Part shown: piece by piece, positions 1 to 24,222 of the stretch
Numbering within the stretch: the stretch's first letter is position 1
Layout of the letters: each line of letters begins with the position of its first letter
Notes under the pieces: model-generated
What the model saw: only the letters and a program-made list of their open reading frames with translations
Database searches by the model: none
What the model was told of the DNA's origin: nothing
Translations under genes and position numbers: made by a program
Origin: Escherichia coli
Lineage (GTDB): Bacteria > Pseudomonadota > Gammaproteobacteria > Enterobacterales > Enterobacteriaceae
Assembly: GCF_044324875.1 (NCBI RefSeq)
Contig: NZ_CP172185.1
Length of the DNA stretch: 64,000 nucleotides
Strand: one strand, 5' to 3'

Positions 1-1238
1 GCGGGTTTGAGTGGCAGATCCCCGGTCTGCGCCGCGAACTGGTGATTGCTCTGATTAAATCGTTGCCGAAACCAGTACGCCGTAATTTTGTGCCCGCGCC
101 AAACTACGCCGAAGCTTTTTTAGGCCGCGTCACACCGCTGGAATTGCCGTTGCTCGACAGCCTTGAACGAGAGCTGCGGCGGATGACTGGCGTCACCGTT
201 GACCGCGAAGACTGGCACTGGGATCAGGTGCCCGATCACCTGAAAATCACCTTCCGCGTGGTGGATGACAAAAACAAGAAGCTAAAAGAAGGGCGCTCAT
301 TACAGGATCTGAAAGATGCTCTGAAAGGCAAAGTGCAGGAAACGCTGTCTGCGGTGGCGGATGACGGTATCGAGCAGAGCGGCTTACATATCTGGAGTTT
401 TGGGCAACTGCCGGAAAGCTACGAACAGAAGCGTGGCAACTACAAAGTGAAGGCGTGGCCAGCGTTGGTGGATGAGCGCGACAGCGTGGCGATCAAACTG
501 TTTGATAACCCGCTGGAACAAAAGCAGGCAATGTGGAACGGTCTTCGCCGTTTACTGCTGCTGAATATTCCGTCGCCAATCAAATATTTGCATGAGAAGT
601 TGCCAAACAAAGCCAAACTTGGGCTGTACTTTAACCCGTATGGCAAAGTGCTGGAGCTGATAGACGACTGTATCTCCTGCGGTGTGGATCAACTGATCGA
701 CGCCAATGGTGGCCCGGTCTGGACGGAAGAAGGCTTTGCTGCGCTGCATGAAAAAGTCCGCGCTGAACTGAACGACACGGTGGTGGATATTGCGAAGCAG
801 GTCGAGCAAATCCTTACGGCAGTGTTCAATATCAACAAACGCCTGAAAGGGCGGGTGGATATGACCATGGCGCTGGGGCTTTCTGACATTAAAGCGCAGA
901 TGGGCGGGCTGGTGTATCGCGGTTTTGTCACTGGCAACGGTTTTAAACGGCTGGGCGACACGCTGCGTTATTTGCAGGCGATTGAAAAACGACTGGAAAA
1001 ACTGGCGGTTGATCCGCATCGCGACCGTGCTCAGATGCTGAAAGTCGAAAATGTCCAGCAGGCGTGGCAGCAGTGGATCAACAAACTGCCGCCTGCACGT
1101 CGTGAGGATGAAGACGTGAAAGAGATCCGTTGGATGATAGAAGAGTTGCGCGTCAGCTACTTCGCTCAACAACTTGGTACGCCTTATCCGATTTCGGATA
1201 AGCGTATTTTGCAGGCGATGGAGCAGATTAGCGGTTAA
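1..1238 (+). CDS. hrpA: ATP-dependent RNA helicase HrpA, C-terminal part (5' end lies upstream of the window; reading frame open from position 3)
   Basis: ORF open to the window start with no stop; translation matches the HrpA C-terminal region; followed by a terminator. Confidence 0.9.
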   Translation, partial: GFEWQIPGLRRELVIALIKSLPKPVRRNFVPAPNYAEAFLGRVTPLELPLLDSLERELRRMTGVTVDREDWHWDQVPDHLKITFRVVDDKNKKLKEGRSLQDLKDALKGKVQETLSAVADDGIEQSGLHIWSFGQLPESYEQKRGNYKVKAWPALVDERDSVAIKLFDNPLEQKQAMWNGLRRLLLLNIPSPIKYLHEKLPNKAKLGLYFNPYGKVLELIDDCISCGVDQLIDANGGPVWTEEGFAALHEKVRAELNDTVVDIAKQVEQILTAVFNINKRLKGRVDMTMALGLSDIKAQMGGLVYRGFVTGNGFKRLGDTLRYLQAIEKRLEKLAVDPHRDRAQMLKVENVQQAWQQWINKLPPARREDEDVKEIRWMIEELRVSYFAQQLGTPYPISDKRILQAMEQISG

Positions 1239-1263
1239 CCCTGCTATTTGCCTGATAAATCTC

Positions 1264-1296
1264 AAACCCGGTAAGCATTTAGCGCCGGGTTTTTTC
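1264..1296 (+). terminator. Rho-independent terminator after hrpA
   Basis: GC stem (cccgg...ccggg) followed by a T-run (ttttttcttt). Confidence 0.6.
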
Positions 1297-1525
1297 TTTA
1301 TGAATTCTGAAAAATAGCAAGGGCGGTACTATTTTACATAAGTTACATTCATACTCTGCCCATGGTAAACAGGACGTATTGCAATGAGTAGGCATGATAT
1401 TTTAATGAGATCGTATTATGAGCGAATAATAGAGCTTGATTGCGTCGGTCAGGCTTTAATCTCTTTCTATGAAAAACTTCCAGAGGAAATTTTATCAGAA
1501 AATAATGGATTGGATTAATAGTATG

Positions 1526-1861
1526 AAAAATGTAGACAATATTATCTGGCATGATGGTGTTTTAGTTGAAACAAGAATGGAATGTCACCACGCCGGGTAT
1601 AATTTTATATTGACGACAGAACTTTATGTTGATGAATTTACAGCCGGAAGGGAACGAAAAAGATTCGAGTTTACAGGAGTGGAACATTTATCGCAGGTTA
1701 TGGATATTGCTGAGCTTATAGATAACCAAAACGCAGGTAATATTAAAGATGCGACAATTGTTTATAAGGCAAAGAAGTATGAAATTTCACTTCATTTGTT
1801 TGGCGGTTTTTTAAGTTTTACATTTAAAACCATGCGAGTTGTTGACAATGAATTTGAGTAA
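1526..1861 (+). CDS. hypothetical small protein (about 111 aa from MKNVDNI; alternative start 1469), AT-rich
   Basis: ORF in a markedly AT-rich segment between hrpA and ydcF; its stop overlaps the start of the next ORF. Confidence 0.35.
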   Translation, partial: KNVDNIIWHDGVLVETRMECHHAGYNFILTTELYVDEFTAGRERKRFEFTGVEHLSQVMDIAELIDNQNAGNIKDATIVYKAKKYEISLHLFGGFLSFTFKTMRVVDNEFE

Positions 1862-2297
1862 TGCCAAATGCGACAAATTGTCTTTTTATGAAGAAAAAAT
1901 CCGCTGGCGAATGCGTCGGCAAATCTCGAATGCAGAGGCAATATTTTACGAGAATCAGGAAGAACACATTCAGCGCTTTTTAGGCAGATATACCTGCCGC
2001 AAACCGGTTCTTGTTTATTGGGAAAGTGAACAAAGATGGACATCTGTAAACGGTCTGGAAGTGATGAGTATGTTTGATGGGCATTGTCATCACATCTACC
2101 TTGATGATATCAATAAAAAAATACAAGCTGAATTACCTGAAGATAAAACATTAGGTTTCAAACGTCAATTGCAATTTTTCAGTTTAGGGGATGAGAAGAT
2201 TAGAATATGGGTGCCACAGGGGGAATTATATTTCGCATTAATGAATGTATTGCAGATGTTCCCCCTGAAGAAAATGGTTAATGACTGGACAAGGTAA
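1848..2297 (+). CDS. hypothetical protein (about 149 aa from MNLSNAKCDK), AT-rich
   Basis: ORF whose ATG overlaps the stop of the preceding ORF (translational coupling); no recognisable motif. Confidence 0.35.
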   Translation: MNLSNAKCDKLSFYEEKIRWRMRRQISNAEAIFYENQEEHIQRFLGRYTCRKPVLVYWESEQRWTSVNGLEVMSMFDGHCHHIYLDDINKKIQAELPEDKTLGFKRQLQFFSLGDEKIRIWVPQGELYFALMNVLQMFPLKKMVNDWTR

Positions 2298-2415
2298 TTT
2301 CAAATCACAGTAATGTCCATCGATTATACATGGTACGTAAACAGACTCGCACCGTTTTTGCAGAAGGTTAATGTGTGTCTATTGAGTGCAGTCTCATATA
2401 TGAAGGGGTATTGAC

Positions 2416-2793
2416 ATGGATGAATGTTTTATAAATATCACTCCGACTTCATTGTCTTTTAAAAACGCCGATCTGTCAGATTTAAGCTATAAAAATGCCA
2501 GGCTTGAACTTACCCTGATATGCCCGGCGATCAAGTCAGAAGTTAAGTTATCATTTGACTGGATACATTCATTTCGTGTTACTGACGAAGGTGATTTGTT
2601 AGGAATGTCAGGAATGCACGGTATTAACCAAACAGGTATCTATAGAGTAGTGAATTCCGCCTATTTTTCATGGTTTACTATGCAAAGTTGTGAAATTTAT
2701 AAAAATAATGTGATCGAGCATTATGTCATTGCCACGTCAAATGATGTTATTGATGTTTTATCAACAGTTTCTCCGCAAATACAGTATGACTAA
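2416..2793 (+). CDS. hypothetical protein (125 aa), AT-rich
   Basis: third same-strand ORF in the AT-rich islet; no recognisable motif. Confidence 0.35.
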   Translation: MDECFINITPTSLSFKNADLSDLSYKNARLELTLICPAIKSEVKLSFDWIHSFRVTDEGDLLGMSGMHGINQTGIYRVVNSAYFSWFTMQSCEIYKNNVIEHYVIATSNDVIDVLSTVSPQIQYD

Positions 2794-2908
2794 AACCAGT
2801 GTCTGGTTCGCGATGGCGAGGTAGAAAAAGCATCATCTTCCTTTCAGAGTGCTCCGCTTCTCATTATTATCTCACGCAGTATTCTTAAGGAAACGATAAG
2901 GAGGAACC

Positions 2909-3709
2909 ATGAACATTACCCCGTTTCCGACGCTTTCGCCGGCAACCATAGATGCCATAAATGTTATCGGTCAGTGGCTGGCGCAGGATGATTTCTCCGG
3001 TGAGATGCCGTATCAGGCCGATTGCGTGATCCTTGCAGGCAATGCGGTTATGCCAACTATCGATGCGGCATGCAAGATTGCCCGCGATCAGCAAATTCCT
3101 CTACTGATTAGTGGTGGTATCGGTCACTCGACAACTTTTTTGTATAGTGCCATCGCACAGCATCCGCACTACAACACTATCCGCACCACTGGCAGAGCAG
3201 AAGCTACCATCCTGGCGGATATCGCTCATCAGTACTGGCACATTCCGCATGAAAAAATCTGGATTGAAGACCAGTCAACAAACTGCGGTGAAAACGCACG
3301 CTTTAGCATCTCGCTATTGAATCAGGCCGTAGAACGAGTTCATACGGCTATCGTTGTTCAGGACCCCACAATGCAGCGGCGCACGATGGCGACGTTCCGC
3401 CGTATGACTGGGGACAATCCCGATGCACCACGCTGGTTAAGTTATCCCGGATTCGTTCCTCAGCTAGGAAACAACGCAGACAGTGTAATCTTTGTTAATC
3501 CGTTGCAAGGATTATGGCCGGTTGAGCGTTATCTCTCACTACTCACTGGCGAGCTGCCACGTTTACGCGATGATAGCGATGGCTACGGTCCACGCGGGCG
3601 AGATTTTATCGTTCACGTTGATTTTCCGGCAGAAGTCATCCAGGCATGGCAAACGCTGAAACACGATGCGGTGCTCATCGAGGCGATGGAAAGTCGCTCG
3701 TTACGTTAA
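2909..3709 (+). CDS. ydcF: DUF218-family protein YdcF
   Basis: 266-aa ORF recognised as YdcF; RBS aaggagg upstream. Confidence 0.9.
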
Positions 3710-3905
3710 AAATTGCCCGTTTGTTAACCATTTGTTTGCAAACGGGCATGACTCCTGACGTTTATTTCTGCCTTTTATTCCTTTTACACTTGTTTTTATG
3801 AAGCCCTTCACAGAATTGTCCTTTCACGATGCCGTCTCTATGATGATTGATGTTAATTAACAATGCATTTACCAATAACAAACATATAAATCACAGGAGT
3901 CGCCC

Positions 3906-5345
3906 ATGTCAGTACCCGTTCAACATCCTATGTATATCGATGGACAGTTTGTTACCTGGCGTGGAGACGCATGGATTGATGTGGTAAACCCTGCTACAGA
4001 GGCGGTCATTTCCCGCATTCCCGATGGTCAGGCCGAGGATGCCCGTAAGGCAATCGATGCAGCAGAACGTGCACAACCAGAATGGGAAGCGTTGCCTGCC
4101 ATTGAACGCGCCAGTTGGTTGCGCAAAATCTCCGCCGGGATCCGAGAACGCGCCAGTGAAATCAGTGCGCTGATTGTTGAAGAAGGGGGCAAGATCCAGC
4201 AGCTGGCTGAAGTCGAAGTGGCTTTTACTGCGGACTATATCGATTACATGGCGGAGTGGGCACGGCGTTATGAAGGCGAGATTATTCAAAGCGATCGTCC
4301 AGGAGAAAATATTCTTCTGTTTAAACGTGCGCTTGGCGTGACTACCGGCATTCTGCCGTGGAACTTCCCGTTCTTCCTCATTGCCCGCAAAATGGCTCCC
4401 GCTCTTTTGACCGGTAATACCATCGTCATTAAACCCAGTGAATTTACGCCAAACAATGCGATTGCTTTTGCCAAAATTGTCGATGAAATAGGCCTTCCAC
4501 GCGGTGTGTTTAACCTTGTGCTAGGGCGTGGTGAAACCGTTGGGCAAGAACTGGCGGGTAACCCAAAGGTCGCAATGGTCAGTATGACAGGCAGCGTCTC
4601 TGCAGGTGAAAAGATCATGGCGACTGCAGCAAAAAATATCACAAAAGTGTGTCTGGAATTGGGTGGTAAAGCACCAGCTATCGTAATGGACGATGCCGAT
4701 CTTGAACTGGCAGTCAAAGCCATCGTTGATTCACGCGTCATTAATAGTGGGCAAGTGTGTAACTGTGCAGAACGTGTTTATGTACAGAAAGGCATTTATG
4801 ATCAGTTCGTCAATCGGCTGGGTGAAGCGATGCAGGCGGTGCAATTTGGTAACCCCGCTGAACGCAACGACATTGCGATGGGGCCGTTGATTAACGCCTC
4901 GGCGCTGGAAAGGGTCGAGCAAAAAGTGGCGCGCGCAGTAGAAGAGGGGGCGAGAGTGGCGTTGGGGGGCAAGGCAGTAGAGGGGAAAGGATATTATTAT
5001 CCGCCGACATTGCTGCTGGATGTTCGCCAGGAAATGTCGATTATGCACGAGGAAACCTTTGGCCCGGTGCTGCCAGTGGTCGCATTTGACACGCTGGAAG
5101 AGGCTATCGCAATGGCTAATGACAGTGATTACGGCCTGACCTCATCAATCTATACCCAAAATTTGAACGTCGCGATGAAAGCCATTAAAGGGCTGAAGTT
5201 TGGTGAAACTTACATTAACCGTGAAAACTTCGAAGCTATGCAAGGCTTCCACGCCGGATGGCGTAAATCCGGTATTGGCGGCGCAGATGGTAAACATGGC
5301 TTGCATGAATACCTGCAGACCCAGGTGGTTTATTTACAGTCGTAA
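3906..5345 (+). CDS. aldA: lactaldehyde dehydrogenase
   Basis: 479-aa ORF recognised as AldA (aldehyde dehydrogenase family). Confidence 0.95.
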   Translation: MSVPVQHPMYIDGQFVTWRGDAWIDVVNPATEAVISRIPDGQAEDARKAIDAAERAQPEWEALPAIERASWLRKISAGIRERASEISALIVEEGGKIQQLAEVEVAFTADYIDYMAEWARRYEGEIIQSDRPGENILLFKRALGVTTGILPWNFPFFLIARKMAPALLTGNTIVIKPSEFTPNNAIAFAKIVDEIGLPRGVFNLVLGRGETVGQELAGNPKVAMVSMTGSVSAGEKIMATAAKNITKVCLELGGKAPAIVMDDADLELAVKAIVDSRVINSGQVCNCAERVYVQKGIYDQFVNRLGEAMQAVQFGNPAERNDIAMGPLINASALERVEQKVARAVEEGARVALGGKAVEGKGYYYPPTLLLDVRQEMSIMHEETFGPVLPVVAFDTLEEAIAMANDSDYGLTSSIYTQNLNVAMKAIKGLKFGETYINRENFEAMQGFHAGWRKSGIGGADGKHGLHEYLQTQVVYLQS

Positions 5346-5355
5346 TGAGTGAAAG

Positions 5356-5379
5356 AGGCGGAGGTTTTTCCCTCCGCCT
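5356..5379. terminator. bidirectional stem-loop terminator between convergent aldA and gapC
   Basis: perfect hairpin aggcggagg-tttttc-cctccgcct. Confidence 0.6.
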
Positions 5380-5386
5380 TTGCGCG

Positions 5387-6388
5387 TCAGAGTTTAGCGA
5401 ATTTTTCGAGGGTGCGAATAAGCTGCGTGACGAAGCCATATTCGTTATCGTACCAGGCGACCGTTTTCACCAGTTGTAAATCGCCCACGGCGGTAATTTC
5501 CGTTTGCGTGGCATCAAACACCGACCCGAAATGGCTGCCAATGATATCAGAAGAGACTATTTCTTCATCGGTATAACCAAATGACTCGTTATTGTTTGTC
5601 GCCTTTTTAAGCGCGTTGTTCACCTCTTCGGCAGTCACTTTTTTTCCAAGAATAGACACCAGTTCAGTCACCGAACCTGTTTTCACGGGTACGCGTTGCG
5701 CATGACCTTTCAGTTTGCCGCTCAGTTCCGGGATCACCAGACCAATGGCTTTTGCCGCACCTGTAGTGTGGGGAATGATATTTTCTGCCGCTGCACGTGA
5801 AGCGCGTAGATCTTTACCTCGCGGACCATCCACCAGTGACTGAGTGCCGGTATAGGCATGAATGGTCGTCATCGTGCCGACTTCTATTCCGAAACTGTCG
5901 TGCAAGGCTTTGGCCATCGGTGCAAGACAGTTAGTGGTGCATGACGCCACGGAAACAATGGTGTCGTTGCCATCCAGTGTGTCGTCATTGACGTTATAAA
6001 CGATGGTTTTCATTTCACCGGCAGGGGCGGAAATCAACACTTTCTTCGCACCAGCATCAAGATGCGCCTGCGATTTCTCGGCGGAGGTATAAAAGCCAGT
6101 ACATTCGACAATGATTTCTGCGCCTTTCGCTTTCCATGGAATATTTTTAGCCTCTTTTTCGGCGTAAACCGCGATACTTTTTCCATCAACGATAAGTGAA
6201 TCTTCCGTAAAATCAACGCGCCAGGGGAACGGACCATAGTTTGAATCATGTTTCAGCAGATAGGCGAGAATTTTTGGGGAAGTGAGATCATTAATAGCAA
6301 CAATGTCTATGTTGCTTTTGACTTCAAGTAATCGACGCAACACCAGTCGACCGATACGACCAAAACCGTTAATACCAACTTTACTCAT
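5387..6388 (-). CDS. gapC: glyceraldehyde-3-phosphate dehydrogenase GapC (intact)
   Basis: uninterrupted 333-aa ORF with the GAPDH N-terminal NAD-binding motif [10 protein letters not shown] and active-site region SCTTNCLAP. Confidence 0.9.
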
Positions 6389-6576
6389 GGTCTTCTCCTG
6401 TCAGGAACGTTCGGATGAAAATTGATCCTTTCCAGGCTTAGACCAGGATGGCGGGATGGGCAATCTACATTCTTGCCGTGAAACGTAACGTACTGAAAAC
6501 GGGTGAACAATATTTAATGAAATTTTAAGAAAAGCTCGTTATGTTAACGGAAAATTGTTTTAAAGCAGGAAATGTT

Positions 6577-7107
6577 ATGGAAAATAAATACTCAAGGTTA
6601 CAAATCAGCATTCACTGGCTGGTCTTTTTGCTGGTTATCGCAGCGTATTGCGCAATGGAGTTTCGTGGTTTCTTCCCACGTAGCGATCGGCCGCTCATCA
6701 ACATGATTCATGTTTCCTGTGGCATCACAATTCTCGTGCTGATGGTGATTCGTCTTTTGTTAAGGCTGAAATACCCAACCCCGCCGATTATACCTAAGCC
6801 AAAACCGATGATGACGGGACTGGCGCATTTGGGACATTTGGTGATCTATCTCCTGTTTATTGCGCTGCCAGTGATTGGTTTGGTGATGATGTATAACCGG
6901 GGCAACCCGTGGTTTGCGTTTGGTATGACGATGCCTTATGCATCAGAGGCCAATTTCGAACGGGTTGATAGCTTAAAGTCGTGGCATGAAACGCTGGCAA
7001 ATCTGGGATACTTTGTCATCGGGTTGCACGCTGCGGCTGCACTGGCACACCACTATTTCTGGAAGGACAACACACTTCTACGCATGATGCCGCGTAAACG
7101 TTCCTGA
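6577..7107 (+). CDS. cybB: cytochrome b561
   Basis: 176-aa membrane protein from MENKYS; ORF-track start at 6541 is an upstream extension. Confidence 0.9.
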   Translation: MENKYSRLQISIHWLVFLLVIAAYCAMEFRGFFPRSDRPLINMIHVSCGITILVLMVIRLLLRLKYPTPPIIPKPKPMMTGLAHLGHLVIYLLFIALPVIGLVMMYNRGNPWFAFGMTMPYASEANFERVDSLKSWHETLANLGYFVIGLHAAAALAHHYFWKDNTLLRMMPRKRS

Positions 7108-7391
7108 AGGATATTTAAAGAAAACGCCTGTACTAAAACCGACCCGTGGTACAGGCGAAGAATACGGGTCTACATCGGAAGCGCCTATTATATTTATTTG
7201 TATGACAAATAAAACCATAATCCTGGTCCATACGTCCATCTGGCTTATCTTTAATCAATTCACCCGATCTTTGATCTCATCAACGGTATCAAAATAAACC
7301 AGCGTATAACGTTCAAATCGAACATAAGATTCGATAGGTGATGCTGCCAACTTACTGATTTAGTGTATGATGGTGTTTTTGAGGTGCTCCA

Positions 7392-7667
7392 GTGGCTTCT
7401 GTTTCTATCAGCTGTCCCTCCTGTTCAGCTACTGACGGGGTGGTGCGTAACGGCAAAAGCACCGCCGGACATCAGCGCTATCTCTGCTCTCACTGCCGTA
7501 AAACATGGCAACTGCAGTTCACTTACACCGCTTCTCAACCCGGTACGCACCAGAAAATCATTGATATGGCCATGAATGGCGTTGGATGCCGGGCAACTGC
7601 CCGCATTATGGGCGTTGGCCTCAACACGATTTTACGTCACTTAAAAAACTCAGGCCGCAGTCGGTAA
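7392..7667 (+). CDS. insA: IS1 InsA
   Basis: 91-aa ORF recognised as IS1 InsA. Confidence 0.9.
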
Positions 7668-8089
7668 CCTCGCGCATACAGCCGGGCAGTGACGTCATCG
7701 TCTGCGCGGAAATGGACGAACAGTGGGGCTATGTCGGGGCTAAATCGCGCCAGCGCTGGCTGTTTTACGCGTATGACAGGCTCCGGAAGACGGTTGTTGC
7801 GCACGTATTCGGTGAACGCACTATGGCGACGCTGGGGCGTCTTATGAGCCTGCTGTCACCCTTTGACGTGGTGATATGGATGACGGATGGCTGGCCACTG
7901 TATGAATCCCGCCTGAAGGGAAAGCTGCACGTAATCAGCAAGCGATATACGCAGCGAATTGAGCGGCATAACCTGAATCTGAGGCAGCACCTGGCACGGC
8001 TGGGACGGAAGTCGCTGTCGTTCTCAAAATCGGTGGAGCTGCATGACAAAGTCATCGGGCATTATCTGAACATAAAACACTATCAATAA
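7586..8089 (+). CDS. insB: IS1 InsB' (expressed as InsAB' by -1 frameshift)
   Basis: 167-aa ORF overlapping insA in the -1 frame, as in IS1. Confidence 0.9.
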
Positions 8090-8128
8090 GTTGGAGTCAT
8101 TACCGATTCGATAAACCATGGAGGTTAT

Positions 8129-8302
8129 ATGAAAAAACTGGCACTCATCTTTGTTATAGGAGCGCTTGTTTCCTTTTATGCCGATGCCGGGCGCAAACCC
8201 TGTTCTGGTTCGAAAGGGGGGATCTCACACTGTACGGCAGGCGGCAAATTTGTCTGTAATGATGGTTCTATTAGTGCATCGAAAAAAACATGCACTAACT
8301 GA
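8129..8302 (+). CDS. ydcA: small secreted protein YdcA (57 aa)
   Basis: short ORF with signal peptide, translated by hand (below the ORF-track length cutoff); RBS ggagg upstream. Confidence 0.8.
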   Translation: MKKLALIFVIGALVSFYADAGRKPCSGSKGGISHCTAGGKFVCNDGSISASKKTCTN

Positions 8303-8374
8303 AGCGTAAAAAGGGGTGCCATGAGAAAATGAATCTGCTAGTCAGATGCGCGGGGAAAATCCCCGCGCTTGCCC

Positions 8375-8564
<190 letters not shown>

Positions 8565-8582
<18 letters not shown>

Positions 8583-8630
8583 TCGTTGGCCTCGGTTGAT
8601 AGAAATATCGGTCGGGGCCTTCGTCTTTCT
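8565..8630 (+). ncRNA. sokB: approximate position of SokB antisense RNA (placed by analogy with hok/sok loci)
   Basis: inferred from hok/sok architecture only; ends not determined from sequence. Confidence 0.25.
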
Positions 8631-8856
8631 GATTCCCGGTTAGCCTGAAAACAGAAAGTCTCAGGCACCCGTGAGCATCCTATGTGGTTTCCTTAGGGAC
8701 GAAAATAATCACCTGACGAAATTGCGTGCTGTTTTCCAGAATTTTTCGTCATTCGGTTTAGCCAGTTTAATCATTCGTTACTCTCTTCATTCCAATGGCA
8801 TTATTCTTCTCTGCCATAATTGTTGTAAAAATGTGACGCAAAGAGGTTTTTGGTCG

Positions 8857-8883
8857 TAAGAAATTACCGTCAAGTGCCGATGA
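8857..8883 (+). promoter_or_regulatory. sigma-28 (FliA) type promoter upstream of trg
   Basis: taagaaat-N11-gccgatga resembles the FliA consensus TAAAGTTT-N11-GCCGATAA, about 40 bp upstream of the trg ATG. Confidence 0.5.
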
Positions 8884-8922
8884 CTTTCTATCAGGAGTAA
8901 ACCTGGAAGAGAGTCAACGGTA

Positions 8923-10563
8923 ATGAATACAACTCCCTCACAGCGATTAGGTTTTTTGCATCACATCAGGCTGGTTCCGTTATTTGCCTGCATTCTTGGC
9001 GGTATCTTAGTTCTATTCGCATTAAGTTCAGCTCTGGCTGGCTATTTCCTCTGGCAGGCCGATCGCGATCAGCGTGATGTTACTGCGGAGATTGAGATTC
9101 GGACCGGGTTAGCGAACAGTTCAGATTTTTTGCGTTCAGCCCGGATCAATATGATTCAGGCCGGTGCTGCGAGTCGTATTGCGGAAATGGAAGCAATGAA
9201 GCGAAATATTGCGCAAGCCGAATCGGAGATTAAACAGTCGCAGCAAGGTTATCGTGCTTATCAGAATCGGTCGGTGAAAACACCTGCTGATGAAGCCCTC
9301 GACACTGAATTAAATCAACGCTTCCAGGCTTATATCACGGGTATGCAACCGATGTTGAAATATGCCAAAAATGGCATGTTTGAAGCGATTATCAATCATG
9401 AAAGTGAGCAGATCCGACCGCTGGATAATGCTTATACCGATATTTTGAGCAAAGCCGTTAAGATACGTAGCACCAGAGCCAACCAACTGGCGGAACTGGC
9501 CCATCAGCGCACCCGCCTGGGTGGGATGTTCATGATTGGCGCGTTTGTGCTTGCCCTGGTCATGACGCTGATAACATTTATGGTGCTACGTCGGATCGTC
9601 ATTCGTCCATTGCAACATGCCGCACAACGGATTGAAAAAATCGCCAGTGGCGATCTGACGATGAATGATGATCCGGCAGGTCGTAATGAAATCGGTCGCT
9701 TAAGTCGTCATTTACAGCAAATGCAGCATTCACTGGGGATGACAGTAGGGACCGTTCGACAGGGCGCGGAAGAGATTTATCGTGGCACCAGCGAAATTTC
9801 CGCTGGCAATGCGGACCTTTCATCTCGCACCGAAGAACAAGCGGCGGCAATTGAACAAACTGCCGCCAGCATGGAGCAACTCACTGCGACGGTGAAACAG
9901 AATACAGATAACGCGCATCATGCCAGCAAACTGGCGCAGGAGGCTTCTATTAAAGCCAGCGATGGCGGGCAGACGGTTTCCGGTGTAGTAAAAACGATGG
10001 GCGCTATCTCCACGAGTTCGAAGAAAATTTCCGAGATCACCGCCGTCATCAACAGTATTGCTTTCCAGACGAATATTCTGGCACTGAATGCTGCCGTTGA
10101 AGCCGCGCGAGCGGGTGAGCAAGGGCGTGGATTTGCCGTTGTCGCCAGCGAAGTACGGACACTCGCAAGCCGCAGCGCCCAGGCGGCGAAAGAGATTGAA
10201 GGCTTGATCAGTGAATCAGTCAGGTTAATTGACCTGGGGTCGGATGAGGTAGCAACGGCAGGGAAAACCATGAGCACTATTGTTGATGCCGTCGCGAGTG
10301 TCACACATATCATGCAGGAAATCGCCGCCGCCTCGGATGAACAAAGCAGAGGCATAACACAGGTTAGCCAGGCGATTTCTGAAATGGATAAGGTGACGCA
10401 ACAGAATGCTTCTCTGGTAGAAGAGGCCTCAGCGGCGGCGGTGTCCCTTGAAGAACAGGCGGCACGATTAACTGAGGCGGTGGACGTATTCCGTCTGAAC
10501 AAACATTCTGTGTCGGCCGAACCTCGCGGAGCGGGTGAACCAGTTAGATTCGCTACGGTGTGA
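8923..10563 (+). CDS. trg: methyl-accepting chemotaxis protein III (ribose/galactose)
   Basis: 546-aa ORF with two TM segments, HAMP and conserved MCP signalling domain. Confidence 0.95.
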
Positions 10564-10576
10564 AAATGTTAAAGGA

Positions 10577-10592
10577 GGGATCGACAGATCCC
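10577..10592. terminator. stem-loop between convergent trg and ydcI
   Basis: palindrome gggatcgacagatccc. Confidence 0.4.
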
Positions 10593-10600
10593 TTCACCTT

Positions 10601-11524
10601 TCAGAACGGCATTGATTTTCGAATAGCGTTAATCATCAACTGGCAACCAGAAGAGAACGTCGCATCTACGCGGGTCAGTATTCCAATCGGTTCGCCTGCA
10701 CCATGACCCGGAACAGGCAGGGCCACCAGCGTGGCATGACGCAGGTCGTCTTTTACAGCGCCAGAAGGGACAAACCACACGTAGTCGTATTCAACCGTAA
10801 GTTGACGAGATAGCGAAGCAGACAGTGTTTCGATACAGCCCGAAGGAATTTTACAGCCCTGGCTCTGCACTAATGCATCTGAATGCTGGCGTGGCGCAGT
10901 GCCTTCTGGTGATACAACAACCGGCCATTCCAGCACCCGGCTTAGCGTTACGTTCTCCTGAAGTAGCGGGTGATTAGGGCGGACAACCAGCTTCAGCGAT
11001 TCAAGAAACAGCAGTTCGTAATTAAGCCCGGTCATCAGTTCAGGATCTGACATCCGACCAATGCCGATATCGATTTCCCCGGTTTTTAAACCTGCCAGAA
11101 TCATAGGGTTACTCATTGTCGCAACTTGCAAGGTCGTCTCTTTTTGTTGCTGATGAAACTGACCTATAACCGAAGGTAATATCCCCAGTGCCGCAGTAGG
11201 TAGTGCACCAACCCTGACGACATCATTATTAAGACCTTCTTTACGATGAAGCGACTGTCCGGCAGTGTTGATGGCGTCAAGAACTCTGACTGCATGCGTT
11301 AAAAATTGTTCGCCGGGTAAGGTAAGTTGCGCCCCCTGACGACCACGCTCAAACAAGCGAGCGCCCGTCAGTTGCTCCAGTTCATTCAATGTCTTAGAGA
11401 GCGCAGGTTGACTCAAATTAAGGGTTTCAGCCGCGCGCCCCAAAGTTCCTTGTTGTGCGACAGCTACGAATGTATGAAGGTGGCGCAAACGGATGCGCTG
11501 ACTAAACAGACTATTTTTTTCCAT
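10601..11524 (-). CDS. ydcI: LysR-family transcriptional regulator YdcI
   Basis: LysR N-terminal HTH; start taken at MEKNSL (307 aa); ORF track extends to 11593. Confidence 0.85.
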   Translation of the reverse strand: MEKNSLFSQRIRLRHLHTFVAVAQQGTLGRAAETLNLSQPALSKTLNELEQLTGARLFERGRQGAQLTLPGEQFLTHAVRVLDAINTAGQSLHRKEGLNNDVVRVGALPTAALGILPSVIGQFHQQQKETTLQVATMSNPMILAGLKTGEIDIGIGRMSDPELMTGLNYELLFLESLKLVVRPNHPLLQENVTLSRVLEWPVVVSPEGTAPRQHSDALVQSQGCKIPSGCIETLSASLSRQLTVEYDYVWFVPSGAVKDDLRHATLVALPVPGHGAGEPIGILTRVDATFSSGCQLMINAIRKSMPF

Positions 11525-11740
11525 AAGCGATGTTAAAAACGAAGCGGTGTCGCTGACAAGTGAAGTTGTTTGATTATGATAACTTGATTGCAAAATATTA
11601 TTAACAATTAAAGCAATTGTATTACATCAAAATGGGTAATATTAATGTTTTCGCGGCGAGATCACAGTTTGCAAATTCTTCCCGCCAGAGTGAATGCGGT
11701 TACCTACACTCCAGATTACTGACCACTGGAGGCAGACATT

Positions 11741-13084
11741 ATGGCGAACAGCATCACGGCGGATGAGATTCGGGAACAGTTTTCGCAGGCAATGTCAGCC
11801 ATGTACCAGCAAGAAGTTCCGCAGTACGGCACGCTGCTGGAACTGGTAGCTGATGTGAATCTGGCTGTGCTGGAAAACAATCCTCAACTGCACGAAAAAA
11901 TGGTAAATGCAGACGAGCTGGCGCGACTGAATGTTGAACGTCATGGGGCGATTCGCGTTGGGACTGCACAAGAGCTTGCTACTCTTCGGCGGATGTTTGC
12001 CATTATGGGGATGTACCCGGTGAGCTATTACGATCTCTCGCAGGCGGGCGTGCCGGTACATTCCACAGCATTTCGGCCCATTGATGATGCTTCTCTGGCG
12101 CGTAATCCCTTCCGCGTTTTTACCTCCTTACTCCGCCTTGAGCTTATCGAGAACGAAATTTTGCGCCAGAAAGCGGCGGAGATTCTGCGTCAGCGCGATA
12201 TCTTCACCCCACGTTGTCGACAACTGTTAGAGGAATATGAGCAGCAGGGCGGTTTTAACGAAACACAGGCACAGGAGTTTGTGCAGGAAGCCCTGGAAAC
12301 GTTTCGCTGGCACCAGTCAGCGACGGTGGATGAAGTAACCTATTGCGCCTTGCATAACGAACATCGGCTGATTGCTGATGTGGTCTGTTTTCCTGGATGC
12401 CATATCAACCACCTGACGCCACGCACGCTGGATATTGACCGGGTGCAGTCGATGATGCCTGAATGCGGAATTGAACCCAAAATTCTGATCGAAGGGCCGC
12501 CGCGCCGCGAGGTACCGATTTTACTACGCCAGACCAGTTTTAAAGCACTGGAAGAGACGGTGTTGTTTGCAGGGCAGAAACAGGGCACGCATACCGCGCG
12601 CTTTGGTGAAATAGAGCAGCGTGGCGTGGCATTAACGCCGAAAGGACGACAACTGTATGATGATCTACTGCGGAACGCTGGAACCGGGCAGGATAATCTC
12701 ACTCACCAAATGCATTTACAGGAAACCTTCCGCACTTTTCCTGACAGTGAGTTTTTAATGCGTCAGCAAGGGTTGGCATGGTTCCGGTACCGTCTGACGC
12801 CTTCAGGTGAGGCGCATCGTCAGGCGATTCATTCCGGAGACGATCCACAGCCCTTAATTGAACGTGGTTGGGTAGTGGCGCAACCCATTACCTATGAAGA
12901 TTTCTTGCCCGTTAGCGCGGCGGGGATCTTCCAGTCAAATCTGGGTAATGAAACGCAGGCACGCAGTCACGGTAATGCCAGTCGCGAAACATTTGAGCAG
13001 GCGTTGGGCTGCCCGGTTTTGGATGAGTTCCAGCTTTATCAGGAAGCGGAAGAACGCAGTAAACGTCGCTGTGGTTTGCTTTAA
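11741..13084 (+). CDS. ydcJ: DUF1338-family protein YdcJ
   Basis: 447-aa ORF recognised as YdcJ. Confidence 0.9.
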   Translation: MANSITADEIREQFSQAMSAMYQQEVPQYGTLLELVADVNLAVLENNPQLHEKMVNADELARLNVERHGAIRVGTAQELATLRRMFAIMGMYPVSYYDLSQAGVPVHSTAFRPIDDASLARNPFRVFTSLLRLELIENEILRQKAAEILRQRDIFTPRCRQLLEEYEQQGGFNETQAQEFVQEALETFRWHQSATVDEVTYCALHNEHRLIADVVCFPGCHINHLTPRTLDIDRVQSMMPECGIEPKILIEGPPRREVPILLRQTSFKALEETVLFAGQKQGTHTARFGEIEQRGVALTPKGRQLYDDLLRNAGTGQDNLTHQMHLQETFRTFPDSEFLMRQQGLAWFRYRLTPSGEAHRQAIHSGDDPQPLIERGWVVAQPITYEDFLPVSAAGIFQSNLGNETQARSHGNASRETFEQALGCPVLDEFQLYQEAEERSKRRCGLL

Positions 13085-13308
13085 ATTCTGACCATCCGCC
13101 TTTGCAAAAATTTGCCTGATTTTACAAACGAATCAGGCTCATCCCATCGACATAAAAAAATTGCCGATTAATGCATATTCTCTCAGTTCAACAATTGGAT
13201 TATTAATAAATATTGTCTAGAGTGAGCGGTCATAAATAAGCACTTTCTTGCCGCTGAAAACGACCAGCGCGGGACCATTCACAACACCAGAAGGACTCAC
13301 TTTCAGGT

Positions 13309-14964
13309 ATGGATCGTAGACGATTTATTAAAGGTTCAATGGCTATGGCCGCCGTGTGCGGTACCAGCGGCATTGCTTCTCTTTTTTCTCAGGCGGCATT
13401 CGCGGCAGATTCTGATATTGCCGACGGGCAAACCCAGCGTTTTGACTTCTCCATTCTACAGTCAATGGCGCACGACCTAGCGCAAACAGCGTGGCGTGGT
13501 GCGCCGCGTCCGTTACCTGACACTCTGGCGACAATGACGCCGCAGGCTTATAACAGTATTCAATACGACGCCGAAAAATCGCTCTGGCATAACGTTGAGA
13601 ACCGTCAACTGGACGCTCAGTTCTTCCATATGGGAATGGGTTTCCGTCGCCGCGTTCGTATGTTTTCTGTTGATCCCGCAACACATCTGGCGCGTGAAAT
13701 TCACTTTCGCCCGGAGTTGTTCAAATACAACGATGCGGGTGTTGATACCAAACAATTAGAAGGGCAAAGCGATCTCGGCTTTGCCGGTTTTCGCGTGTTT
13801 AAAGCCCCCGAACTGGCGCGTCGTGATGTAGTATCATTCCTCGGTGCGAGTTATTTCCGCGCCGTTGATGACACATATCAATATGGTTTGTCGGCTCGCG
13901 GCCTGGCGATCGACACTTACACCGACAGTAAAGAAGAGTTCCCCGACTTTACCGCCTTCTGGTTTGATACGGTAAAACCGGGGGCAACTACCTTTACCGT
14001 TTATGCGTTGCTCGATAGCGCCAGTATTACTGGTGCCTATAAGTTCACTATCCATTGTGAGAAAAGTCAGGTGATTATGGATGTGGAAAATCACCTGTAT
14101 GCGCGCAAAGACATTAAACAGCTGGGCATTGCGCCGATGACCAGCATGTTCAGCTGCGGCACTAATGAACGTCGGATGTGCGACACCATTCATCCGCAAA
14201 TCCATGACTCTGATCGTCTGTCCATGTGGCGGGGCAACGGCGAGTGGATTTGCCGTCCGCTGAATAATCCGCAAAAATTGCAGTTCAATGCTTACACCGA
14301 CAACAACCCGAAAGGGTTTGGTTTATTGCAACTGGATCGTGATTTCTCCCATTATCAGGACATTATGGGCTGGTATAACAAACGCCCAAGTCTGTGGGTG
14401 GAACCGCGTAACAAGTGGGGTAAGGGCACCATCGGCCTGATGGAAATCCCAACAACGGGCGAAACGCTGGATAACATTGTCTGCTTCTGGCAGCCAGAAA
14501 AAGCTGTAAAAGCGGGTGATGAGTTTGCATTCCAGTATCGTCTGTACTGGAGTGCGCAACCGCCTGTTCATTGCCCATTAGCGCGCGTTATGGCGACGCG
14601 TACCGGCATGGGCGGTTTCCCGGAAGGTTGGGCGCCAGGTGAACACTATCCCGAAAAGTGGGCGCGTCGTTTTGCCGTCGATTTCGTTGGTGGTGATCTG
14701 AAAGCTGCCGCACCAAAAGGCATTGAGCCGGTGATTACGCTTTCCAGTGGGGAAGCGAAGCAAATCGAAATTCTCTATATTGAACCCATTGAAGGTTATC
14801 GTATTCAGTTTGACTGGTATCCGACTTCGGACTCCACTGATCCGGTCGATATGCGGATGTATCTGCGTTGTCAGGGCGACGCTATCAGTGAAACATGGCT
14901 GTATCAGTATTTCCCACCAGCGCCGGATAAACGTCAGTATGTTGACGACCGCGTGATGAGTTAG
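13309..14964 (+). CDS. opgD: periplasmic glucan biosynthesis protein D (Tat-secreted)
   Basis: 551-aa ORF with twin-arginine signal [10 protein letters not shown]. Confidence 0.95.
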
Positions 14965-14976
14965 TCGTTTTTTCTT

Positions 14977-15000
14977 CGGCACCTTCTTCGGGAGGTGCCG
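14977..15000 (+). terminator. stem-loop after opgD
   Basis: inverted repeat cggcacc...ggtgccg. Confidence 0.4.
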
Positions 15001-15103
15001 TCTGGTTAAACACGATCCCGCTCGCATTTTTCCCTAAGTTAAATGAGTAATCTGATGGTGTGTATTTCAGATACACCTTGTCAGCCACTAACAGGGAGTG
15101 CGT

Positions 15104-15328
15104 ATGTTTCCAGAATACCGAGATTTAATATCCCGTCTGAAAAACGAAAATCCTCGCTTTATGTCCTTGTTCGATAAACACAATAAACTTGATCATGAAA
15201 TTGCCAGAAAGGAAGGTTCCGACGGTCGAGGGTACAATGCGGAAGTGGTCCGCATGAAAAAACAAAAGCTACAGTTAAAAGATGAGATGCTCAAAATCCT
15301 GCAGCAGGAGAGCGTCAAAGAGGTGTAA
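15104..15328 (+). CDS. ydcH: DUF465-family small protein YdcH
   Basis: 74-aa ORF from MFPEYRDL. Confidence 0.8.
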   Translation: MFPEYRDLISRLKNENPRFMSLFDKHNKLDHEIARKEGSDGRGYNAEVVRMKKQKLQLKDEMLKILQQESVKEV

Positions 15329-15337
15329 ACTTTCCTA

Positions 15338-15363
15338 AGCCGCCAGCCAGGCGGCTTTTTTAA
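15338..15363 (+). terminator. Rho-independent terminator after ydcH
   Basis: hairpin agccgccagccaggcggct followed by tttttt. Confidence 0.7.
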
Positions 15364-15390
15364 CAACTGCATGGAGTGACTGGAGATAAG

Positions 15391-15930
15391 ATGACTGAAA
15401 CGATAAAAGTAAGCGAATCACTTGAATTACATGCTGTTGCAGAAAATCACGTCACACCTCTTTATCAGTTAATCTGTAAAAATAAAACCTGGTTACAGCA
15501 GTCGCTAAACTGGCCGCAGTTTGTTCAAATTGAAGAGGACACACGAAAAACGGTGCAGGGCAATGTAATGTTGCATCAACGCGGCTATGCCAAAATGTTC
15601 ATGATTTTCAAAGAAGATGAACTTATCGGCGTTATCTCGTTTAATCGTATTGAACCACTGAATAAAACCGCTGAAATCGGCTACTGGCTGGACGAATCTC
15701 ATCAGGGGGAGGGGATCATTTCTCAGGCGCTGCAGGCATTGATTCATCATTATGCTCAGTCTGGTGAACTTAGACGCTTCGTGATCAAATGTCGGGTGGA
15801 CAATGCGCAAAGCAACCAGGTCGCTTTGCGCAATGGTTTTATCCTTGAAGGTTGCCTGAAACAGGCTGAGTTTCTGAATGATGCCTATGATGATGTGAAC
15901 TTATACGCGCGTATTATCGATTCACAATAA
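15391..15930 (+). CDS. rimL: ribosomal protein L7/L12 serine acetyltransferase
   Basis: 179-aa GNAT ORF from [10 protein letters not shown]. Confidence 0.9.
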
Positions 15931-16902
15931 CCCTGCCAGCGGCGTTCGCGTAATGCGCTCTTCGCCGTTAATGACTTTTGGACCACGGACATGAACCGTG
16001 TCGCCATCAAAGGCTTCAACGACGGCGTGGTCGGTTAACTCCACATGGTTTTCAATTATCACCGCACCTGTAATACGGCTCTCACCTTGTATTACAACGT
16101 GCTCGTCGAGCAGAATCGGTCCGCCACGTACCACGGCATTTCCGCCAATCAAGACATGATGTTTTAACACACAATTACCTTCCACAATGGCATATTCCGC
16201 TACCTGCGAACTGTAATGAATTGTCGGAATGGCATCTTCTTCTATGCCAGCTTTCACCTGCGCGTGACCGTAGACTTTAGCACAATCGCATAGCCAGACG
16301 TTGTTCTCTTCATTACCTTCAACGCTGGCAAAATCAAAAACTTCGGCGCGATGTTCAATAAAAGCATACCGGACGACGGCATCGCCATAAATTTGTGCCT
16401 GGTGAACAATACGCGAGGCGCTAACCCTTGCGCGATCATAAATTTGTAGCAGGAGTTGATGGTCGGAGGTTAAGCCTTGCGCGGCGACGATCATAGAATG
16501 TTGATCAATTAAGGCGTGACCAAATATTCTACATTGACCGCAAACTAATGCGTCACGAATGGTGACGCTGTCACTTATATGTGCACCCTGACTGATTTCA
16601 CTATTATCGATCCAGACGTTATCCGTTGCGTAAACCTCTCCCCAAAGGACGCTGGTGCCGGTGATACGCGTATTACCGGAAATCACCGTTCCGCCGAACG
16701 CAATAGCATTCTGATCGTAAATCCAGCAATTTCCTTCCTGCGCTAACACCGTTTCGCGATCGATCCAGCCGCCAGCGGTTCCTGCTATCACATCGTTAAA
16801 ATCGCTCATGGCGATAATTTGCCGTAATAACACACTTTTTTTAGTGCCATCATCCTGATAACTAAAGGCTCGCTGTTCTTCACTTAGACGATATTTGCGC
16901 AT
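15922..16902 (-). CDS. ydcK: hexapeptide-repeat protein YdcK
   Basis: 326-aa ORF with left-handed beta-helix hexapeptide repeats. Confidence 0.9.
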
Positions 16903-17025
16903 AGCGTTTTCCCACAGGTGACTTACTATAACCGTAGCAAATTCTGCGGCTCTGGCTATGCTCGAGAAAATTCCATAAAATGCATTTCAAATATACTTTA
17001 TAAATTAAACAAAATGAGTAAGAAG

Positions 17026-18018
17026 ATGCAGAGCGATAAAGTGCTCAATTTGCCGGCAGGCTACTTTGGTATTGTGTTGGGGACGATAGGGATGGGATTT
17101 GCCTGGCGCTATGCCAGCCAGGTTTGGCAGGTCAGCCACTGGTTAGGGGATGGGCTAGTGATTCTGGCGATGATCATCTGGGGATTATTGACTAGCGCAT
17201 TTATTACCCGACTCATACGCTTTCCGCATAGCGTGCTGGCGGAAGTGCGTCATCCAGTGATGAGCAGTTTTGTGAGTTTGTTTCCGGCAACGACGATGCT
17301 GGTGGCGATTGGTTTTGTTCCGTGGTTTCGCCCACTGGCGGTGTGCCTGTTCAGTTTTGGCGTCGTGGTGCAACTGGCTTATGCCGCCTGGCAAACTGCG
17401 GGATTATGGCGCGGATCTCATCCTGAAGAAGCTACCACGCCTGGACTGTATCTGCCGACAGTTGCCAACAACTTTATCAGCGCAATGGCCTGTGGTGCAT
17501 TGGGCTACACCGACGCTGGTCTGGTGTTTTTAGGCGCAGGCGTTTTCTCATGGTTAAGCCTGGAACCGGTGATCTTGCAGCGTCTGCGCAGTTCGGGAGA
17601 ATTACCCACGGCGCTGCGGACATCACTCGGCATTCAGCTCGCTCCTGCGCTGGTGGCCTGTAGTGCCTGGCTGAGCGTCAACGGCGGCGAGGGTGACACG
17701 CTGGCGAAAATGCTTTTCGGTTATGGGCTGCTGCAACTGCTGTTTATGCTACGTCTGATGCCATGGTATCTCTCCCAGCCATTTAATGCTTCATTCTGGA
17801 GTTTCTCGTTCGGCGTATCTGCACTGGCAACCACCGGTTTGCATCTGGGGAGTGGCAGCGATAATGGATTTTTCCATACGCTGGCGGTGCCGCTGTTTAT
17901 CTTTACCAATTTTATAATTGCAATACTGCTCATCCGTACTTTCGCGCTTCTGATGCAGGGGAAATTGTTAATCAGAACCGAGCGCGCCGTTTTAATGAAA
18001 GCTGAGGACAAAGAATGA
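17026..18018 (+). CDS. tehA: tellurite resistance / C4-dicarboxylate transporter family protein TehA
   Basis: 330-aa polytopic membrane ORF from MQSDKVLN. Confidence 0.9.
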
Positions 18019-18618
18019 TCATTCGTGACGAAAACTATTTTACTGATAAGTATGAATTAACCCGCACACACTCTGAAGTACTGGAAGCGGTGAAAGTGGT
18101 TAAACCCGGTAAAACGCTGGATCTGGGCTGTGGCAATGGTCGTAATAGTCTTTACCTGGCAGCCAATGGTTATGAAGTTGACGCATGGGATAAAAATGCC
18201 ATGAGTATCGCCAACGTCGAGCGTATTAAATCCATTGAAAATCTGGATAATTTACACACCCGGGTCGTTGATCTGAATAACCTTACGTTTGATGGGCAAT
18301 ACGATTTTATTCTTTCGACTGTGGTGCTGATGTTCCTTGAGGCTAAAACCATCCCAGGGCTGATTGCCAATATGCAACGTTGCACTAAACCTGGCGGTTA
18401 CAACCTGATTGTGGCGGCGATGGATACCGCTGATTATCCATGTACCGTCGTGTACCGTCGGCTTCCCGTTTGCCTTCAAAGAGGGAGAATTACGTCGATA
18501 TTACGAAGGCTGGGAGATGGTGAAATACAATGAAGACGTCGGCGAGCTGCACCGCACCGACGCCAACGGTAATCGTATTAAACTGCGTTTCGCCACGATG
18601 CTGGCACGTAAAAAATAA
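18015..18618 (+). pseudogene. tehB: tehB (SAM-dependent tellurite methyltransferase) disrupted by a frameshift
   Basis: ORFs 18015-18533 and 18409-18618 join into one continuous methyltransferase if one copy of the tandem 10-bp repeat at 18441-18460 is removed. Confidence 0.85.
18441..18460 (+). repeat. perfect 10-bp tandem duplication tgtaccgtcg x2 inside tehB
   Basis: read directly from the sequence. Confidence 0.9.
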
Positions 18619-18920
18619 CCTGGTAAGAACAAGGCGCGTGAAAATTCCCCACGCTGAGATGGTCTACTGTTCTTCTTTTCGGTAAGCATAATTTTTATCG
18701 AATGGATGTGAAATTAATCACAGTAGTCGAAGTTTTTTAGCAGCTTAACTTACTGAAATTTAACTACTGATGATTGACTTAGCCCCTTTTTCGGCATTGA
18801 CTATGTCGTCTGAAAAGGGGCTGAAAAATTTATTTTCACCAACACTTTTTTTGCCACAACACGAAGCGGCGCTTTTTGCTATAACTTAGAAAGTAATATA
18901 ATCATCTCAGGAAACTATTC

Positions 18921-19589
18921 ATGCGTACCACATCAATTGCGAAAGTTGCAGCTTTATGCGGCTTGTTGGCTCTGTCTGGTTGTGCCTCTAAAATCACCCA
19001 GCCAGATAAATATTCTGGTTTTTTAAACAATTACTCTGATTTAAAAGAAACAACCTCAGCAACAGGTAAACCTGTTTTACGTTGGGTAGACCCGAGTTTT
19101 GATCAAAGCAAATATGACAGCATCGTCTGGAACCCAGTCACTTATTATCCGGTACCGAAACCATCTACCCAGGTAGGGCAGAAAGTTCTGGATAAAATTT
19201 TGAGTTATACCAACACCGAAATGAAAGAAGCGATTGCGCAGCGTAAACCACTGGTTACCACCGCTGGGCCGCGTAGTCTGATTTTCCGTGGGGCCATTAC
19301 CGGTGTTGATACCAGCAAAGAAGGGCTGCAATTCTATGAAGTGGTTCCTGTCGCATTAGTGGTCGCGGGGACGCAAATGGCGACGGGCCACCGTACCATG
19401 GATACTCGCCTGTATTTTGAAGGTGAGCTGATTGATGCAGCTACTAATAAACCGGTTATCAAAGTCGTTCGTCAGGGCGAAGGTAAAGACCTGAATAACG
19501 AAAGTACGCCAATGGCTTTCGAAAATATTAAACAAGTTATTGATGACATGGCGACCGATGCCACCATGTTTGACGTTAACAAAAAGTAA
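18921..19589 (+). CDS. ydcL: lipoprotein YdcL
   Basis: 222-aa ORF with lipobox LSGC. Confidence 0.9.
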   Translation: MRTTSIAKVAALCGLLALSGCASKITQPDKYSGFLNNYSDLKETTSATGKPVLRWVDPSFDQSKYDSIVWNPVTYYPVPKPSTQVGQKVLDKILSYTNTEMKEAIAQRKPLVTTAGPRSLIFRGAITGVDTSKEGLQFYEVVPVALVVAGTQMATGHRTMDTRLYFEGELIDAATNKPVIKVVRQGEGKDLNNESTPMAFENIKQVIDDMATDATMFDVNKK

Positions 19590-19622
19590 TTCCAGCCGCG
19601 CCATCGTAAGATGCGCTTTTTA

Positions 19623-20795: not shown

Positions 20796-20886
20796 AGTCA
20801 CCTCGTGCGTTATAGCGTACAGGTACCGTAGCATTTGTCCGTTATAACGCACAAGTGATAAACTTCCGTTTTGCCGGAGGAGTCGC

Positions 20887-21423
20887 ATGGAAAATCTCGC
20901 TCGCTTTTTATCCACCACACTTAAACAACTACGCCAGCAGCGCGGCTGGAGTCTTTCGCGACTGGCCGAAGCGACAGGCGTTTCTAAAGCGATGTTAGGG
21001 CAGATTGAGCGTAATGAGTCCAGCCCGACGGTCGCGACATTATGGAAAATTGCCACCGGGTTGAATGTGCCATTTTCGACATTTATTTCTCCGCCGCAGT
21101 CCGCTACGCCTTCAGTTTATGATCCGCAACAGCAGGCGATGGTGATCACTTCGCTGTTTCCTTATGATCCACAACTCTGCTTTGAACACTTCTCGATTCA
21201 GATGGCACCTGGTGCAATAAGTGAATCGACGCCCCATGAGAAGGGAGTAATCGAACATGTTGTCGTCATTGATGGGCAACTTGATCTGTGCGTTGATGGT
21301 GAATGGCAGAGCCTTAATTGTGGAGAAGGCGCTCGATTTGCTGCAGACGTTACGCATGTCTATCGTAATGGTGGGGAGCAAATCGTACATTTTCATTCCC
21401 TCATCCATTACCCACGCAGTTAA
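20887..21423 (+). CDS. ydcN: XRE-family HTH / cupin transcriptional regulator YdcN
   Basis: 178-aa ORF with N-terminal HTH and C-terminal cupin. Confidence 0.9.
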   Translation: MENLARFLSTTLKQLRQQRGWSLSRLAEATGVSKAMLGQIERNESSPTVATLWKIATGLNVPFSTFISPPQSATPSVYDPQQQAMVITSLFPYDPQLCFEHFSIQMAPGAISESTPHEKGVIEHVVVIDGQLDLCVDGEWQSLNCGEGARFAADVTHVYRNGGEQIVHFHSLIHYPRS

Positions 21424-21495
21424 GCGGGAAAACTATTTCGCAACGTCGCGCTTGTGGCTAAAATAGCCGCCATTTTTCAGCTACTGGATAAGAAT

Positions 21496-23457: not shown

Positions 23458-23507
23458 AACGCCAGTTTTCTGGTTACTCACAACTTATCAAATCTGCATG
23501 ATATTGT

Positions 23508-23543: not shown

Positions 23544-23548
23544 ATGAC

Positions 23549-24177: not shown

Positions 24178-24222
24178 TCGCCAATTAAAAAGGTTAATGA
24201 CATGCGAGAGACAGTCGAAATT

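Follow-up and report, generated by a model that had tools for sequence, protein, structure and literature searches.

We analysed a stretch of 64,000 nucleotides from Escherichia coli (contig NZ_CP172185.1 of assembly GCF_044324875.1), hereafter the window, in which a complete copy of the insertion sequence IS1 is located between the small RNA gene rydC and the gene ydcA (Table 1). The original prediction had placed the element between cybB and ydcA, which is right as to the spacer, but the nearest left neighbour of the element is the rydC sRNA gene, which was detected with Rfam and had been missed. In E. coli, rydC is bordered by cybB on its 3' side and by ydcA on its 5' side (PMC11340327). 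In the empty site, +1 of rydC and the ATG of ydcA are 170 bp apart, and the two genes are divergent. The IS1 splits this divergent control region, leaving 155 bp with rydC and 24 bp, 9 of which are duplicated, with ydcA.

Table 1 Features of the cybB-ydcA region, with positions given in the window
Feature	Position	Strand	Basis or remark
cybB (cytochrome b561), upstream neighbour	6577-7107	+	NCBIfam NF008566, 377 bits; annotated in E. coli 042
rydC sRNA gene	7118-7181	-	Rfam RF00505, 92.5 bits (gathering score 48), model 1-64 of 64
rydC -10 box TATAAT	7187-7192	-	Sequence; perfect -10 described in PMC11340327
Exact match to the YieP operator consensus, ATTTGTATGACAAAT	7196-7210		-15 to -29 of rydC; separated from ydcA by IS1
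Hybrid promoter-like site created by the insertion, -35 TTGGCA (in IRL), 18-nt spacer, -10 TATGTT (in flank)	7321-7350	-	9/12 matches
Target-site duplication, left copy, GATTCGATA, 9 bp	7328-7336		Repeat search
Complete IS1 (IS1A type), 768 bp	7337-8104	+	IRL to IRR toward ydcA; read from sequence
Left terminal inverted repeat of IS1 (IRL)	7337-7359	+	Repeat search and terminal-sequence match
Promoter-like site in IRL, CTGCCA-16-TATGAT	7344-7371	+	Promoter scan; location fits the IS1 transposase promoter
insA, 91 aa	7392-7667	+	Matches to both NCBIfam transpos_IS1 and the IS1 zinc-binding domain
insB frame, catalytic part of InsAB'	7586-8089	+	NCBIfam NF033558, 145.6 bits (cutoff 100)
A6C -1 programmed frameshift motif giving InsAB', TTAAAAAAC	7641-7649	+	Sequence
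Right terminal inverted repeat of IS1 (IRR)	8082-8104	+	Outward hexamer TTGGAG at 8091-8096
Target-site duplication, right copy, GATTCGATA, 9 bp	8105-8113		Repeat search
ydcA Shine-Dalgarno sequence GGAGG, retained	8120-8124	+	Sequence
ydcA, intact, 57-aa predicted periplasmic protein	8129-8302	+	NCBIfam NF007462, 140 bits (cutoff 118)

The element has the length, ends and genes of the IS1 family. It starts with GGTGATGCTGCCAACTTACTGAT and ends with ATCAATAAGTTGGAGTCATTACC, and its two termini are imperfect inverted repeats, each about 23 bp long (GGTGATGCTGCCAACTTACTGAT / GGTAATGACTCCAACTTATTGAT). The canonical IRL and IRR 39-mers each matched the window once with 0 mismatches, and neither was found in 100 shuffles, which confirmed the boundaries of the complete 768-bp IS1 that had been proposed. 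The insA gene and the overlapping insB' frame were present together with the A6C motif and a match to the transposase model; the insA fragment itself scored 91.3 bits against NCBIfam NF033558 (cutoff 100). The promoter-like site in IRL corresponds in position to the known transposase promoter of IS1, P_IRL. The own promoter of IS1 is weak and repressed by InsA. The copy in the window was 100% identical to copies in 4 other E. coli records (annotated as 'IS1-like element IS1A family transposase'), and identity to many further copies was 99.9%. It resembles the IS1A/IS1E type of E. coli in its 768-bp length, its terminal inverted repeats, its insA/insB' arrangement with the A6C motif and its 9-bp duplication in AT-rich DNA, and differs from it in location alone. 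As far as can be read from the DNA, every sequence feature of this IS1 copy is intact.

The target site could be reconstructed completely. The exact 9-bp duplication expected from the original prediction, GATTCGATA, was recovered at both ends of the element, and the probability of such a 9-mer match at a fixed position is about 4e-6. The closest complete genome is that of E. coli 042, which is 99.8% identical over 25 kb and carries no IS1 at the site. When IS1 and one copy of GATTCGATA were removed from the window, the 247-bp cybB-ydcA spacer of 042 was obtained with one unrelated SNP, so that a 9-bp duplication with a recoverable empty site in a relative, as is typical of the IS1 family, was found. 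Since the empty site of 042 is rebuilt by the removal of IS1, the repeat reflects real transposition with target-site duplication and not a chance repeat. Identity to 042 was 99.96% over positions 1-7336 of the window and 99.91% over positions 8105-23526, and these near-identical flanks suggest that the insertion is recent. The GC content around the insertion point was 33%, compared with 49% for the window, and an AT-rich target is expected for IS1. All these sequence comparisons indicate that the event is a recent, strain- or clone-specific transposition of an intact canonical IS1 between rydC and ydcA.

To see how widely the insertion occurs, we searched 5,426 complete E. coli genomes with junction-specific 120-mers for the left and the right junction. 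The left junction was found in 0 of the 5,426 genomes, and the right junction revealed only a different insertion among them. Five genomes had full coverage in the right-junction search, but they were rejected as carriers of the same insertion: in 2013C-4991, which was inspected, the IS1 sits 73 bp upstream of ydcA, and the other four showed the same two-piece geometry. The comparison across E. coli genomes at the cybB-ydcA junction that had been suggested as a check thus showed the junction of the window to be absent from all 5,426 complete genomes. The site is empty in K-12 MG1655, which agrees with the original prediction that K-12 has no IS1 here. Among 24 assemblies with an identical YdcA protein, the 5 distinct places shown were all empty, the other 19 having been collapsed as similar. 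A right-junction 35-mer had no match in JGI metagenome contigs. A whole-region BLAST search returned 48 genomes that seemingly had the same arrangement; this was rejected, as the junction-specific searches spoke against it. The best 40 of these 48 were E. coli B derivatives with one common match geometry, and REL606, the only B derivative inspected, carries its IS1 between gapC and cybB with the duplication TGAAAACGG.

The neighbourhood holds other IS1 copies that arose separately. The copy in 2013C-4991 (positions 893-1660 of the retrieved locus) is an independent insertion in the rydC-ydcA spacer with the duplication ATCAACGGT, shared by a group of five related genomes, and the copy in REL606 (positions 1501-2268 of the retrieved locus) is another independent insertion, upstream of cybB, which belongs to the E. 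coli B lineage, of which BL21 is a member. The REL606 copy differs from that of the window by 1 nt, a synonymous change. These insertions are like that of the window in the element, its orientation, the AT-rich intergenic setting and the location within about 1.2 kb, whereas their sites and duplications are different, and they are separate events. We considered whether the locus is an IS1 hotspot under selection and rejected this, since about 160 unique IS1 sites have been reported in 95 ST131 genomes (PMC8764528) and such numbers make two or three events in 1.2 kb unremarkable. IS1 itself was present in 4,969 of the 5,426 genomes, the median being about 11 places in each. That IS1 has entered 1.2 kb of AT-rich intergenic DNA three times independently and in the same orientation is not surprising among 5,426 genomes. 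In the literature, no paper was found that links ydcA with IS1.

On the rydC side of the split control region, the known elements have been preserved. YieP represses rydC about 20-fold, and rydC in turn controls cfa (PMC11340327). The predicted YieP site in the window agrees exactly with the published operator consensus atTTGTaTGAcaAAT (PMC7642389), and together with the cybB and ydcA neighbours and the TATAAT box it places this locus in the typical RydC context. The rydC gene, its -10 box and the YieP operator are all intact and are located at least 127 bp from IS1. Little conservation has been described upstream of the rydC core promoter (PMC11340327). As the insertion spares the core promoter and the operator and conservation farther upstream is slight, YieP probably controls rydC as before. 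The operator sequence varies among the genomes compared: 042 and another assembly contig have G for A (ATTTGTGTGACAAAT), and REL606 and 2013C-4991 have ...TGATAAAT.

On the ydcA side, the coding sequence is intact, and Pfam PF27300 (YdcA) is assigned in precomputed results to proteins identical to its product. The end of IS1 and the ydcA ATG at 8129 are separated by 24 bp (8105-8128), as the original prediction had it. This interval is too short for -35 and -10 hexamers and a leader, so that the native ydcA promoter is expected to have been either displaced or destroyed. Judging from this geometry and not from a mapped promoter, all native ydcA promoter elements and upstream regulatory sites would now be at least 777 bp away or broken. 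A search of the empty site for a consensus sigma-70 promoter was negative, so that the sequence did not reveal where the native ydcA promoter lies; the only outside sign of a promoter in the rydC/ydcA spacer is a SELEX peak of sigma-S RNA polymerase (PMC5493296). Two further observations concern the start of ydcA. The TAA of insB is in the ydcA frame, 13 sense codons upstream of the ATG (8087-8131), and if this stop codon were read through, an InsAB'-YdcA fusion would result. The start of ydcA is also overlapped by a native mini-ORF of 4 codons, ATGGAGGTTATATGA.

We then examined whether the element supplies a new promoter. The earlier claim that IS1 replaces or alters the ydcA promoter held for the displacement, which follows from the geometry, but not for the replacement, for which the best outward promoter-like match facing ydcA, TTGGAG-17-AACCAT, has only 6 of 12 matches. 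The predicted start of this site is 2-3 nt before the ATG and thus downstream of the Shine-Dalgarno sequence, and a standard promoter scan revealed no promoter facing ydcA. An IS-generated hybrid promoter combines an outward -35 in the IS end with a good -10 in the flank at 16-18 nt and faces the gene. Such an arrangement was absent toward ydcA, and toward rydC it was represented by a 9/12 site at chance frequency.

Taken together, the observations are most probably explained by a recent IS1 insertion that cut ydcA from its promoter, so that the expression of ydcA would be lowered and deregulated while rydC is probably unaffected. With moderate confidence, reduced, deregulated or read-through-dependent expression of ydcA is the likeliest outcome. 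The displaced ydcA promoter would now direct transcription into IS1, co-directionally with insA, and ydcA would be transcribed only by read-through across IS1 of transcripts that start at this displaced promoter or at the weak IS1 promoter, which InsA represses. Such read-through into ydcA is possible because IS1 and ydcA are co-oriented. Most ribosomes would stop at the stop codon of insA, leaving about 420 nt of insB largely untranslated, and a largely untranslated insB would be prone to Rho-dependent polarity, by which ydcA would be lowered. IS1 insertions are classically polar.

Published insertions in ST131 provide the closest precedents, as in these cases, too, IS1 shortly precedes a gene and is co-oriented with it (PMC8764528). 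With IS1 upstream of osmB, no hybrid promoter was formed and the transcript was about 4-fold lower; upstream of ugd, the transcript was unchanged; and upstream of afaA, a strong hybrid promoter was formed and the transcript rose by about 7 log2, the outcome being set by a -10 at the right spacing from the outward -35 in the inverted repeat (PMC8764528). Unlike afaA, the ydcA side appears to have no good -10 at the right spacing, and by this comparison the site resembles those of osmB and ugd.

The precedent of ugd raises the alternative that the insertion is silent for ydcA, with enough transcription from cybB or the displaced promoter crossing IS1 to keep expression roughly unchanged. This would agree with the scan of IS1, which gave no strong candidate for an intrinsic terminator on the + strand, but the 768 bp between promoter and gene would be largely untranslated and are usually polar, and the osmB precedent is a decrease. 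We consider a silent insertion rather unlikely. Activation of ydcA by IS1 is a further alternative, either from a hybrid promoter composed of TTGGAG in IRR and a -10 in the duplicated target or by read-through from the IS1 promoter, and expression would then be constitutive and independent of the native regulators. The inverted repeat of IS1 does contain an outward -35, and IS1 can form hybrid promoters, as the increase of afaA illustrates; it is co-oriented with ydcA, and the five genomes of the 2013C-4991 group have an independent IS1 upstream of ydcA in the same orientation. The poor match and unfavourable start of TTGGAG-17-AACCAT, the lack of a ydcA-facing promoter in the standard scan and the weakness of the InsA-repressed IS1 promoter all argue against it, and activation is unlikely.

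The relevant target could also be rydC rather than ydcA. In this case, TTGGCA-18-TATGTT would produce a YieP-independent, 5'-extended RydC, and the regulation of cfa would be altered. The hybrid site points toward rydC, antisense to cybB, at a distance of about 130 nt, and its 9/12 match exists in the filled site only, the same -10 having a 7/12 partner in the empty site. The scan found 2 promoter-like sites in the region where 2.0 were expected from shuffles, and since the count equals the chance expectation, the site is a weak lead only. In addition, its 18-nt spacer is non-optimal and its -10 matches in 4 of 6 positions, and a transcript from this site would run through the YieP operator and, unless processed, bury the 5' seed of RydC in the extension. 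An effect through rydC is therefore very unlikely.

A more elaborate reading is a rewiring in both directions, in which the displaced ydcA promoter drives the transposase, the hybrid promoter feeds rydC and cfa, and the locus is a selected target of IS1. Host transcription from upstream that reads into IS1 has been shown to increase both insAB' transcription and IS1 transposition (PMC12428005). If the rewiring were true, IS1 activity would be coupled to the conditions that induce ydcA, YieP-independent RydC would change the activation of cfa and with it membrane cyclopropanation, and the two other same-orientation IS1s within 1.2 kb would mark the locus as selected for regulatory change. We regard this combination as highly improbable. 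Finally, the wrong placement of a multi-copy element such as IS1 by the assembly, a known risk with repeats of this kind, is barely credible here, since the exact 9-bp duplication and the reconstruction of the empty site indicate true transposition and not a repeat collapse or misjoin.

Promoter displacement through a recent IS1 insertion thus remains the preferred explanation, and the insertion itself appears to be a neutral or mildly deleterious IS event; nothing suggests otherwise. The element and the mechanisms involved (promoter displacement, polarity, possible hybrid promoters) are already known, and the site is strain-specific. The locus is a clean example of IS1 parting a gene from its promoter, with little import beyond the annotation of the strain, and the junction, which none of the 5,426 complete genomes has, can serve as a lineage marker. 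Deletion of ydcA renders E. coli W sensitive to 3-hydroxypropionate, and the gene is stated to be induced by acid through YdcI (PMC7642389). The main text of the ChIP-exo paper on YdcI makes no mention of ydcA, so that the statement in PMC7642389 is the single source for the link between YdcI and ydcA. Work on ydcA or rydC in this strain calls for some caution, as 3-hydroxypropionate and cfa phenotypes might differ modestly.

Several other features of the window were noted. Just downstream of ydcA is a hokB/sokB type I toxin-antitoxin locus (8375-8670), with a HokB ORF of 49 aa at 8375-8524 on the minus strand and a sok antitoxin RNA at 8670-8519 on the minus strand (Rfam, 109.7 bits). The window has an intact 266-aa ydcF ORF, whose counterpart in 042 has an internal stop and is annotated as a pseudogene, and an intact gapC-type GAPDH gene of 333 aa on the minus strand (ydcF and gapC are at 2909-3709 and 5387-6388 of the window); gapC is presumably a pseudogene in K-12. 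In 042, IS1397, an IS3-family element, is located between rlhA and yncJ (positions 22830-24263 of the retrieved locus) and is missing from the window at 23524-23526. Identity to 042 is 99.9% on the left of this point and 98.4% over 23.5-46.5 kb, a drop suggestive of a recombination boundary. In the T6SS-associated variable region, no Pfam match was found for a 167-aa ORF (53954-54457) within a very AT-rich segment (53600-54460). Adjoining the T6SS PAAR/VgrG genes, 6.7 kb (46482-53164) that are missing from 042 form a pile of insertion sequences, which includes IS21-like istA/istB (47161-49579), an IS66-family element (49608-52121) and an IS3-family fragment on the minus strand (52148-52750).
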